Shown here one piece after another: positions 27,312 through 33,832 of a DNA stretch of 48,307 bases. The DNA comes from Candidatus Colwellbacteria bacterium (GTDB taxonomy: Bacteria > Patescibacteriota > Minisyncoccia > UBA6257 > Colwellbacteraceae). Location: assembly GCA_023228665.1 (NCBI GenBank), contig JALOAR010000001.1:1-48307 (forward strand), read 5' to 3'. Under the pieces are notes generated by a model. That model saw only the letters and a list, made by a program, of their open reading frames with translations, made no database searches and was not told where the DNA came from. Position 1 is the stretch's first letter, and the number at the start of each line of letters is the position of its first letter. The translations under genes and the position numbers were made by a program.

Positions 27312-27728
27312 ATGAGATTAAACTTTGCTCTATTAGCTCAAGAAGTGGAGCTAAAGGAAAACGGAGGGGTTGATATTAAGGATCCAATAACTAATTTGTC
27401 GGCACCTGCTTTGCCAGCTAGGCATGAAAGGGCGGCGGTAATTATTAATTTTATGCCGGGGGATACAGAGAAGCATAAGCTTGATATTAAAATAACCGGG
27501 TCTTATGAAGGAGGCGATTGCGTGAGACCTCATTCCTCTGAAGTTGGTCCGGCAGTTTCAGAAAAAGCTTCTATAGGGCATGTTGCCTATATTGGCGACA
27601 TATCTTTAGAGAGAGAAGGCGATTACAGAGTTGAGGTGGATGTTGACGGGGAACGATTAGCTACTATTCCTTTTTCCTTGCATTTGGCAGAAAATGGTTA
27701 TCTAGAAGGAATATGTGAGAAAAAATAG
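27312..27728 (+). CDS. Hypothetical protein
   Basis: 138-aa ORF with no SD and a clean bidirectional terminator 13 nt downstream. Loosely resembles small beta-rich DUF proteins (MRLNFALLAQEVE...); no firm family call. Confidence 0.5.
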   Translation: MRLNFALLAQEVELKENGGVDIKDPITNLSAPALPARHERAAVIINFMPGDTEKHKLDIKITGSYEGGDCVRPHSSEVGPAVSEKASIGHVAYIGDISLEREGDYRVEVDVDGERLATIPFSLHLAENGYLEGICEKK

Positions 27729-27740
27729 AAATTTATTTTT

Positions 27741-27768
27741 AAAAAAGAGCGCTTAAGCGCTCTTTTTT
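27741..27768. terminator. Bidirectional rho-independent terminator
   Basis: aaaaaagagcgc-ttaa-gcgctctttttt: perfect 7-bp GC-rich stem flanked by A6 and T6. Confidence 0.8.
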
Positions 27769-27772
27769 GTTA

Positions 27773-27856
27773 GGCGTTCAACTCCCGCAGGACATATTCA
27801 TATAATATAAAACTCCTCTTGCGAGGAGTCTTATATATGTGGAGATGGCGGGAGTT
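27773..27856 (-). repeat. 84-bp direct repeat, copy A (orphan copy of ssrA 3' end + terminator + downstream arm)
   Basis: Identical base for base to 27942-28025 by my reading. Contains the last 17 nt of tmRNA (aactcccgccatctcca on the minus strand) but not the rest of the gene. Confidence 0.9.
27803..27829 (-). terminator. Duplicate copy of the ssrA terminator hairpin
   Basis: gactcctc-gcaa-gaggagt plus tttatatt on the minus strand, inside repeat copy A. Confidence 0.6.
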
Positions 27857-27941
27857 CCCTCAACTAAATTTTTCGCCGTCGCTCAAAATTTGTTTCAGGC
27901 CGCGCCTCCCTCGATTTTTCTGGCTGAAAAATCTTCAGTCC

Positions 27942-28025
27942 GGCGTTCAACTCCCGCAGGACATATTCATATAATATAAAACTCCTCTTGCGAGGAGTCT
28001 TATATATGTGGAGATGGCGGGAGTT
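27942..28025 (-). repeat. 84-bp direct repeat, copy B (genuine ssrA 3' end + terminator)
   Basis: Same 84 bp as 27773-27856. Continues rightwards into the intact tmRNA body. Confidence 0.9.
27972..27998 (-). terminator. ssrA rho-independent terminator
   Basis: Minus strand reads gactcctc-gcaa-gaggagt followed by tttatatt, starting 10 nt after the tmRNA discriminator base. Confidence 0.75.
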
Positions 28026-28391
28026 GAACCCGCGTCCGGATTAAAACATAAACAGCTTCTACGAGCGTATCTTAGTTTTGGTTAAACGATGATCCTTTAA
28101 CTAAGCAAACGTTATCATCGAACCGCGCTCGTTAGTCTTTGCTTTACTTGGAGAGCGCAAGCCAGTAAAGCGCAACCTGAAGTATTATGCCCAAAGGATA
28201 TTTCAGGCGGAATTATCCAAGGACACCCGTTTCGCGGGAGAGCTTATTGCTCTCAAGCCTGTTTAGGCAAAAGCGAAAGCGGGAACGCGTACTTTATTGT
28301 TGGCGTTTATAATTTTGAAACTGTTTAAAGAGAAGTATCAACTCTGCACGCAACTATTTAAGTTTTTAACACGTCGAGGCCTTACATCCCC
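28009..28391 (-). ncRNA. ssrA: tmRNA (transfer-messenger RNA)
   Basis: The minus-strand 5' end GGGGATGTAAGGCCTCGACG pairs with the 3' end CATCTCC+A (G3:U pair). T-arm is GCGGGTTCAACTCCCGC. Tag reading frame is GCC AAC AAT AAA GTA CGC GTT CCC GCT TTC GCT TTT GCC TAA (28304-28263). CCA is not encoded. Confidence 0.9.
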
Positions 28392-28727: not shown

Positions 28728-29168
28728 TTATTTAATTTTTTTACCTACTTCTTTGCTTATATCTCTCTTTTTTATCACTTCTCGCTTGTCTGCCTTGCGG
28801 CGGGAGCGGCCAAGGCCTATTTTTACTTTTATCTTACTGCCTTTATTGTGCAGCTCTAAAGGGATAATAGATGTTCTTTCAGAGCTGATGCTTTTTTCTA
28901 TTTCGGATATTTCTTTTTTATTCAGGAGCAGTTTGCGGGGGCGGGAAGTGTTTGGTTCGCTTATCATATTTTGAGGCTGGTATGGCGGAATATCCATATT
29001 AATAAGCCAAACCTCATTGCTTCTTAATATTCCGTATGATCCTGATAAATCTGCTTTGCCTTGCCTTATAGATTTAACTTCCCAGCCAAGCAACTCCAAG
29101 CCAGCCTCGAAGGTTTCGCGGATGTCAAAATTGAACTTAGCTTTTCTATTGGTGGAAAAAATTGCCAT
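28728..29168 (-). CDS. smpB: SsrA-binding protein SmpB
   Basis: 146 aa. NRKAKFNFDIRETFEAGLELLGWEVKSIR...Y...R.RKLLL is typical of SmpB. Confidence 0.95.
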   Translation of the reverse strand: MAIFSTNRKAKFNFDIRETFEAGLELLGWEVKSIRQGKADLSGSYGILRSNEVWLINMDIPPYQPQNMISEPNTSRPRKLLLNKKEISEIEKSISSERTSIIPLELHNKGSKIKVKIGLGRSRRKADKREVIKKRDISKEVGKKIK

Positions 29169-33630: not shown

Positions 33631-33703
33631 GGTGTCTATGGTGTAGTGGTTAGCACTAGAGTTTGTGGAACTCTCAGCACGGGTTCGAATCCCGTTAGAC
33701 ACC
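33631..33703 (+). tRNA. tRNA-His (GTG) with encoded G-1
   Basis: G(-1)+GTGTCTA/TAGACAC+C73, AGAGT-TTGTGGA-ACTCT anticodon arm, ACGGG-TTCGAAT-CCCGT T-arm. Confidence 0.9.
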
Positions 33704-33712
33704 CCTATAAAT

Positions 33713-33744: not shown

Positions 33745-33832
33745 ATGTATAAATTTAGAACGGGATTCGAATGTTGGAGGGGTCGAAAAACCGTTCTAAA
33801 TAACTTCTCTTACTTGTGCGAGGGGTTTTTAT

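Follow-up and report, generated by a model that had tools for sequence, protein, structure and literature searches.

The window, i.e., the whole 48,307-nucleotide stretch of DNA analyzed here, carries ssrA, the tmRNA gene, on its minus strand at 28006/28008-28391 (28006..28391 by ARAGORN; Rfam tmRNA RF00023, 147 bits, E = 5e-59). The gene encodes the tag ANNKVRVPAFAFA, and its T-arm, GCGGG-TTCAACT-CCCGC, lies at 28017-28033 on the same strand. Upstream of ssrA are smpB (28728-29168) and an unannotated 102-aa open reading frame (ORF); these, together with ORFs for a DUF6941 protein and for IF3, are the coding regions that adjoin the repeats described below. The DUF6941 ORF (27312-27728, plus strand, 138 aa) is convergent with ssrA and is closed by a palindromic terminator with perfect 14+14 arms at 27741-27768. 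In a same-genus relative (L010), infC directly follows ssrA and the DUF6941 ORF is missing, so the DUF6941 gene is in its turn an insert, variably present, between these two genes.

Positions 27773-27856 and 27942-28025 are identical at 84/84 bases, with a start-to-start spacing of 169, as determined by a repeat search and by direct string comparison. The perfect 84-bp direct repeat, with its copies 85 bp apart, that the initial annotation had described was thereby confirmed, and it is real because a perfect 84-mer arising by chance in 48 kb is impossible. ARAGORN, Rfam, and a terminator scan agree that the proximal copy, DR1 (27942..28025, minus strand, 100% over 84 nt), holds the real ssrA 3′ end (its last 17 nt) and terminator, as had been proposed. 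Read in the tmRNA sense, DR1 starts just after the TTC of the T-loop and comprises the rest of that loop (AACT), the 3′ strand of the T-stem (CCCGC), the 3′ strand of the acceptor stem, the discriminator A plus a C, a trailer with an intrinsic terminator, a segment that we designate X′, and GCC. The genuine tmRNA 3′ end within it, AACTCCCGCCATCTCCAC (28008..28025, minus strand), amounts to 17 nt up to the discriminator, or 18 with the next C. Beyond this end, DR1 contains the terminator hairpin at 27981-27998 (minus strand; GACTCCTC GCAA GAGGAGT, then a T-run) and 39 more bases.

The far end of each repeat holds a detail absent from the initial annotation, namely an inverted copy of the T-arm. 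The proximal X′ (27945..27957, minus strand; GCGGGAGTTGAAC in the tmRNA sense) reproduces in inverted orientation, perfectly over 13 nt, the tmRNA bases equivalent to G53-C65 (GTTCAACTCCCGC, 28017-28029), which make up the T-loop and 3′ T-stem; GTTCAACTCCCGC accordingly reads on the plus strand at both 27945-27957 and 27776-27788. The distal copy, DR2 (27773..27856, minus strand, from the repeat search), repeats the tmRNA 3′ end at 27839-27856, the terminator at 27812-27829, X′ at 27776-27788, and GCC at 27773-27775. As the initial annotation had noted, its tmRNA fragment is joined to an 85-nt stretch (ccctcaact...), and these 85 non-coding bases (27857..27941, minus strand) are all that lies between the repeats. 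In the sense of the gene, the locus therefore reads ssrA up to the T-loop TTC, 84 nt, an 85-nt core, the same 84 nt, and downstream DNA. BLAST, a covariance model, and covariation analysis identify the core as a three-way junction belonging to an element family (family 1), whose closing helix is formed by the proximal X′ (5′ strand; helix 1 of the model) and the tmRNA 3′ end copy at 27839-27856 (3′ strand); with this helix included, the model matches 27848-27958 at 121.5 bits.

Four independent assemblies (ENA ERZ27247376, NCBI GCA_028697855.1, JGI 3300035208, and JGI 3300028602) contain the identical structure, and a fifth (JGI 3300037067) differs by one SNP, in the distal copy only. Because five independent assemblies agree, the duplication is not an assembly artefact, a possibility that the initial annotation had raised. 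A metagenome pattern scan with the ssrA trailer gave 0 matches.

When the repeat region was used as a BLAST query against the 589-kb genome, it was the 85-nt spacer, not the repeat, that found matches. Five further full copies of the core, with 83-87% identity, are present in the same genome along with partial copies, and a seventh, at tRNA-Leu-taa, is partial by BLAST and full by the covariance model. The seven full copies (at tmRNA, Thr-tgt, Glu-ctc, Lys-ctt, Lys-ttt, Asp-gtc, and Leu-taa) each directly adjoin the 3′ end of a tRNA or tmRNA gene, with which they are all co-oriented. The initial annotation had suggested searching for other copies of the spacer, and had offered a miniature element as one reading of the repeat. 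That reading was essentially right, and what differs is the form: the spacer belongs to a family of structured elements, ~90-110 nt each, which are dispersed through the genome and found 3′ of tRNA and tmRNA genes. The copies share a common layout, in which the gene up to the T-loop TTC is followed by the rest of the T-loop, the 3′ T-stem, and the acceptor 3′ strand, then the trailer, X′, and the core, and then the rest of the T-loop, 3′ T-stem, and acceptor 3′ strand once more, together with 1-4 nt or much more. At each locus both X′, on the gene side and inverted, and the direct repeat, on the far side, match the locus's own neighboring tRNA. The trailers are unrelated from locus to locus, even where the cores are nearly identical (Thr, Glu, Lys-ctt).

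We scanned all 43 tRNA and tmRNA genes of the genome for an inverted copy of their G53-N65 bases within 200 nt downstream. The scan recovered the same seven family-1 loci and six others, and no X′ was found at the remaining 30 tRNA genes, which rules out X′ as a standard feature of tRNA genes. The six further loci (Arg-tcg, His-gtg, Leu-tag, Ser-gct, Leu-caa, and Leu-gag) carry a second core, family 2, of ~125-150 nt (GTTGGAGGGGGTCGGGGAACC...GTGAGATT), which is unrelated to that of family 1 and has the same layout of tRNA, trailer, X′, core, and tRNA 3′ end. In all, 13 of the 43 genes are occupied. The Arg-tcg, Leu-tag, Ser-gct, Leu-caa, and Leu-gag copies are on contigs C4, C16, C17, C23, and C39 of the genome (Arg-tcg being L032, 1-200). 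The His-gtg copy lies in the window, where a truncated family-2 element follows tRNA-His (33632-33705) at 33760-33801 on the plus strand. Its X′ (ACGGGATTCGAAT) is complementary to the tRNA-His T-arm at 12 of 13 positions and is succeeded by ~29 nt of the start of the family-2 core (GTTGGAGGGGTCGAAAAACCGTTCTAAAT) and then by unrelated DNA; as a remnant or "landing pad", this piece is comparable to the one-copy ssrA allele described below.

The cores cluster by genome, not by tRNA. The window's tmRNA core and that of another strain (L057) have their nearest relatives at the Lys-ttt and Asp loci, respectively, of the same genome. The cores have therefore been copied between loci, and the flanks are local. 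In the host's own family, 11/53 genomes and 7/30 genera carry the element, as do 45/251 genomes and 35/172 genera of the order, with 1-8 copies each, and 17/350 genomes in the rest of the phylum, other classes included. Of the loci inspected within the family, 22/26 adjoin a tRNA or tmRNA 3′ end or another unit of an array, and tandem arrays and truncated remnants are present among them; 20/20 loci in the order-level sample and 4/5 in the phylum-level sample lie just 3′ of a tRNA. A terminator separates the tRNA from the element at 24/39 loci, and DR2 is followed by a terminator of its own at 18/39. The direct repeats range from 15 to >120 nt, with most copies having only 18-24 nt. Two loci depart from the usual arrangement. 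At L143 (G497:C9, phylum-level), the core has no called tRNA nearby and is flanked by a ~55-nt direct repeat of non-tRNA sequence, from which the closing helix is derived. At L093 (G218:C2:9835-10543), the upstream tRNA-Glu apparently is without the part from the anticodon region to the acceptor 3′ strand and is not called by ARAGORN, yet the element retains a full copy of the tRNA-Glu 3′ end.

The seven copies of this genome fold into a three-way junction with 17 compensated pairs. When 47 copies, drawn from 30 genomes, were aligned to the covariance model, pairing held in 96.6% of cells, as against 37-52% in controls with slid partners; 33 of 34 pairs show changes on both sides (i.e., compensatory changes), values that 0/500 shuffles reach, and the covariation score is 0.736, compared with 0.196 when shuffled and at most 0.134 in the slid controls. 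An alignment fitted to a model leans towards structure, although the margin here is large. Pairing is thus maintained through compensatory change, as in a structured single-stranded RNA or DNA element. The inner helices contain 30 G-T pairs and 1 A-C pair, and this excess indicates that the folding constraint acts on the tRNA-sense strand, be it RNA or single-stranded DNA. Almost no variation is seen in several unpaired stretches, namely CCGGA, GGAGG, and the loops CAGCAG and GAGCGACGGCGA. The strong conservation of the two loops suggests a specific partner or activity, of which the account proposed below makes no use. Rfam 15 holds no family for either the family-1 or the family-2 core (window and L032 as queries), and the sub-threshold overlaps with rimP (28 bits vs 47) and tmRNA_permuted (21.7 vs 47) are due to chance. 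A hammerhead or another known self-cleaving ribozyme was rejected: CUGANGA-like strings occur in the core, but their G8/A9 are Watson-Crick paired, and Rfam returned no match.

The closing helix, in which X′ pairs with the direct copy of the host gene's 3′ end, forms a T-stem-like helix in nearly all copies (92% of cells paired). In many of the more distant relatives the left flank is longer, consisting of a complement to the acceptor 3′ strand, a small hairpin with the loop AACTGCTT, and X′; the tRNA-Tyr copy in L103, for example, reads GTGCGCAG, the hairpin, and GGGGAGGATTCGAA. The acceptor complement matches at 8/8 positions in L103 and at 7/8 in L101, and is also found in L099 and L102. 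These long forms look like the top half of a tRNA (acceptor stem plus T-stem) with the core in place of the T-loop. The copies of the present genome have the T-stem part only, without the acceptor complement.

Strain contigs from ~10 other samples, retrieved through exact matches to proteins adjoining the elements, revealed filled and empty alleles. Among strains with identical SmpB, the ssrA locus is filled, with the structure seen in the window, in five samples (L051-54 and L056). The L055 allele is exactly 169 bp shorter and reads ssrA, trailer, X′, GCC, and downstream DNA, with one copy of the repeat and no core; it comes from a k=141 assembly, which is expected to resolve an 84-bp repeat, not to collapse it. 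L060 carries the same one-copy allele with two substitutions in X′. Both the one-copy and the two-copy states that the initial annotation had proposed looking for in relatives therefore exist. L057 has a core of another subtype, beyond which come no more than 18 nt of tmRNA 3′ end and then different downstream DNA. Contigs L057-L060 end at or near the ssrA element.

The same pattern recurs at other genes. At tRNA-Glu, five samples are filled and four are empty, with a perfect solo X′ retained in the empty allele. The tRNA-Arg locus (family 2) likewise has filled alleles and empty ones with a solo X′, and there two trailer haplotypes occur in every combination across the two repeat copies. One contig (L082, from JGI 3300014206) links the tRNA-Arg locus, through a family-2 core, to the downstream flank of tRNA-Ser-gct, and is probably an assembly chimera through the repeated core. 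By comparison, the short-repeat Asp and Leu-taa copies appear fixed, with gene spacing constant in 17/17 spanning contigs (10/10 and 7/10 strains). As these copies are constant and the long-repeat loci are polymorphic, long repeats go with instability.

Where the repeat begins and ends bears on how it was made. The left boundary always falls after the T-loop TTC. The right end extends into the core by 0 (Glu), 2 (Thr), 3 (ssrA), 4, 13, 20, or ~41 nt, depending on the locus. At L025, a partial core distal to the full copy is of another subtype (AAGGTT, as against CAGATT in the full copy) and must therefore be older than the full core beside it; the repeat ends at the point where remnant and full core diverge. 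Taken together, the variable right end and the L025 remnant argue against a measured target-site duplication. Further, DR2 contains trailer bases, not CCA, so it was copied from DNA or from a precursor and not from mature tRNA.

We conclude that the 84-bp repeat flanks a single copy of an element that is non-coding and non-autonomous and that is tied to tRNA and tmRNA 3′ ends. The fuller reading, in which the length of the repeat additionally reflects homology-guided copying that restarted in the tmRNA T-loop, is the one we favor, with a probability of roughly 60%. The route by which such copying might have occurred can be reconstructed from the end points of the repeats as a series of template switches. 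A truncated landing pad of ssrA, terminator, X′, and GCC would already have stood after ssrA, exactly the arrangement present in L055 and L060. At the edge of this remnant, the 3′ end of a DNA strand undergoing synthesis or repair could have switched to another copy of the element in the genome through shared X′/GAACGCC homology and copied its core. The 3′ flank of that core would have had its sole other homology at the ssrA T-loop and T-stem, and re-annealing there would have led to a second copying of the stretch from the final 18 nt of ssrA through the terminator and X′ to GCC. Such a route would make a dedicated transposase unnecessary, and the unit could later be removed by recombination between the two 84-bp copies. 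The one-copy strains may equally be the product of such a deletion, because 84-bp repeats recombine easily. Conversion of a tRNA lacking X′ was not observed among the loci compared, and the origin of X′ at new tRNAs lies outside this account. Two candidate sources of the flanks were rejected: a mobile unit of tRNA 3′ end, trailer, X′, and core (as a circle or in the manner of IS608), since trailers are unrelated despite nearly identical cores, and, for X′, its origin by fold-back synthesis at the terminator, since the Thr and Glu trailers of this genome are not palindromic. Fold-back synthesis does fit the long palindromic trailers of the relatives L092, L094, L096, and L103.

There is a real chance that the mechanism or the RNA of the element is something new. 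More specifically, and tentatively, the element could be a new kind of selfish or semi-domesticated RNA or DNA that clamps itself with copies of host-tRNA arms, mimics the top half of a tRNA, and spreads without a transposase of its own, or else its invariant loops could mark a new ribozyme or protein-binding RNA acting on tRNA 3′ ends. Such an element would have its arms re-templated from each new host gene, whether by fold-back or template-switch synthesis or through an RNA intermediate handled by tRNA-processing enzymes.

Alternatively, the core might chiefly be a host small-RNA gene whose products imitate tRNA 3′ ends, each made beside the tRNA it imitates, with the repeats arising as by-products of unequal recombination and gene conversion, not of mobility. 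We consider this doubtful as the principal explanation, though it is compatible with homology-guided copying. The covariation and invariant loops reach the level of riboswitches and ribozymes across the phylum, G-U pairs occur on the tRNA-sense strand only, DR2 remains identical to the tRNA while the cores diverge by 15-20%, DR2 often leads into its own terminator (18/39 loci), the long forms imitate both the acceptor and T helices of the neighboring tRNA, and the class-1 Asp and Leu-taa copies keep a constant gene spacing in all 17 spanning contigs. A host gene would not be expected, however, to be confined to 18% of genomes, to accompany different tRNAs even within one genus, to exist as presence/absence alleles in conspecific strains, or to form tandem arrays and truncated remnants. 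Moreover, a terminator stands between tRNA and element at 24/39 loci, and the cores cluster by genome.

A transposase or integrase, possibly borne by a phage or plasmid, might instead recognize the inverted arms (GTTC-T-loop-T-stem and X′) as a palindrome or hairpin, cut symmetrically, and insert the core, with gap repair duplicating the DNA between the cuts to yield a very long target-site duplication, comparable to the action of Cas1-Cas2 on a CRISPR repeat. Consistent with such an enzyme, what filled alleles have and empty ones lack is, at three loci and in two families, precisely the core and the stretch that runs from T-loop position 57 through X′; the left boundary is constant after the T-loop TTC; and the folding constraint bears on a single strand, a trait of elements mobilized as single-stranded DNA. 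We nevertheless judge it improbable. The right boundary is not constant but lies, depending on the locus, 0 to ~41 nt inside the core, and in L025 it coincides with the point of divergence from the older remnant, which fits homology better than a measured cut; the repeat is only 18-24 nt in most copies; and terminal inverted repeats belonging to the core itself are absent. Of the enzymes looked for, TnpB (PF07282) and Y1 (PF01797) are absent from this genome, and reverse transcriptase (RT) is uncorrelated with the element; an enzyme of another family acting in trans, such as a tyrosine or serine recombinase or a homing nuclease, might still take part. Within the family, PF07282 is found in 3/53 genomes and PF01797 in 10/53, unrelated to the presence of the element, and RT (PF00078) is encoded in 4/11 genomes with the element and 13/42 without it, i.e., there is no co-occurrence. 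We accordingly rejected a retroelement (retron, group II intron, or SINE-like) or tRNA-primed cDNA, as RT does not co-occur with the element, and a TnpB omega-RNA with the tRNA 3′ end as its guide, the geometry of which is attractive but for which TnpB and Y1 are missing. The single RT-like ORF of this genome (C2:9904-10317, minus strand, 219 aa) is probably partial.

The initial annotation had also offered a different source, in which the repeat would be the attL/attR scar of an excised or decayed integrase-bearing island that targeted ssrA. The 3′ ends of ssrA genes are classic sites of island integration, with crossovers often in the T-loop, where this repeat starts, and the islands, prophages, and CIMEs (miniature derivatives without an integrase) of tRNA and tmRNA genes share with our element a direct repeat, running from the T-loop to the gene end, that brackets foreign DNA downstream of an intact gene. 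The insert here, in contrast, is 85-110 nt and non-coding, and we found neither an integrase gene or remnant between or beside the repeats nor any island gene at the locus. The 85-nt insert belongs to a family that also occurs at six other tRNAs, where the repeats correspond to the local gene (those at Thr, Glu, and Lys, for example, to three different tRNAs), so that there is no fixed att block and no fixed attP. An att site does not explain why the long repeat spans a terminator and an inverted T-arm copy, a copy which is always present here and which the empty, core-less alleles retain. Same-genus tmRNA loci, in which the initial annotation had proposed looking for a full island, contain neither an island nor a remnant of one. 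Nor is there support for the DUF6941 ORF as leftover island cargo, as had been suggested: it is unchanged in strains with and without the unit (L051-L056) and sits beyond its own bidirectional terminator. We therefore regard an island scar as highly implausible. Equally implausible is that no element is involved and that the repeat is just a local tandem duplication, an option allowed by the initial annotation, produced by slippage during replication, or else an artefact of assembly: the locus is formally a 169-bp unit repeated ~1.5 times, but the unique part of that unit is a multi-copy structured family, and one of the five concordant assemblies has a SNP in a single copy.

The element resembles several other known systems in part. 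Like MITEs, REP/BIME, ERIC, Correia, RUP, and the Rickettsia RPE, it is small, non-coding, multi-copy, foldable, patchily distributed, and polymorphic in presence among strains. It differs in that constant terminal inverted repeats are absent from the core, as is a short target duplication of fixed length; what stands in the place of terminal repeats are copies of the neighboring gene, and X′ changes from one host tRNA to the next. The elements are positioned exclusively 3′ of a tRNA or tmRNA gene and in a single orientation, and the covariation, with one strand constrained, goes far beyond simple palindromy. The tyrT-rtT region of E. coli is similar in having tandem units downstream of a tRNA with copies of its 3′ bases; 178-bp units, each with a tRNA 3′ end, reportedly follow tRNA-Tyr and are ascribed to unequal recombination. 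That case, however, concerns a single locus, whereas ours concerns a dispersed family with a conserved fold, and we know of no inverted T-arm copy described there.

At the right end of IS200/IS605 elements, the omega/reRNA of TnpB consists of a scaffold followed by ~16-20 nt of flanking DNA that serves as the guide. Our element is similar in having a one-strand scaffold and then ~20 nt that match DNA beside a GTTC motif, here that of the T-loop, but part of this "guide" is locked in the closing helix, and TnpB and Y1 are missing both here and in most element-bearing genomes. Finally, as in tRNA-like structures (the tRNA-like domain of tmRNA, viral 3′ TLS, YrlA, and mascRNA), the closing helix of the long forms reproduces an acceptor and T-stem, with a 3′ strand identical to a tRNA 3′ end. 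Unlike those structures, the mimic is specific to the neighboring tRNA, its 5′ strand is a perfect complement and not the tRNA's own, and the T-loop is replaced by a ~90-nt junction; the copies in this genome do not have the acceptor part at all, and the element has no Rfam match (tmRNA_permuted, tRNA, and YrlA included). Thus the element resembles MITEs, att duplications, and tRNA mimics in separate respects and does not fully fit the definition of any of them. In the literature searched, we found no account of a structured element that is restricted to the 3′ flanks of tRNA and tmRNA genes and is held closed by sequence copied from its host gene.

The genome concerned is 0.59 Mb and has hardly any mobile DNA, yet 13 of its 43 tRNA and tmRNA genes are occupied, and the fold is conserved phylum-wide in these ultra-small bacteria despite having no Rfam family. 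That the arms are copied afresh from each host tRNA is not explained by current classes of mobile element. These observations bear on the spread of repeats in minimal genomes free of transposases and on tRNA 3′ ends as hot spots of recombination. They also have a practical side: the pseudo tRNA and tmRNA 3′ ends can be mistaken for att sites of islands, and can break or chimerize metagenome assemblies (e.g., L082), and the covariance model provides a ready marker for annotating the elements.

A further small hairpin repeat, TGTCATTCCCG-N5-6-CGGGAATCCAG, was observed in four copies (C2:8809, C9:17655, C10:6378, and C25:21941). It resembles the dRS3 type of Neisseria (ATTCCC-N8-GGGAAT). The copy at C25:21941 is located just downstream of the tRNA-Glu element, and the motif also follows the L025 element in another genome.
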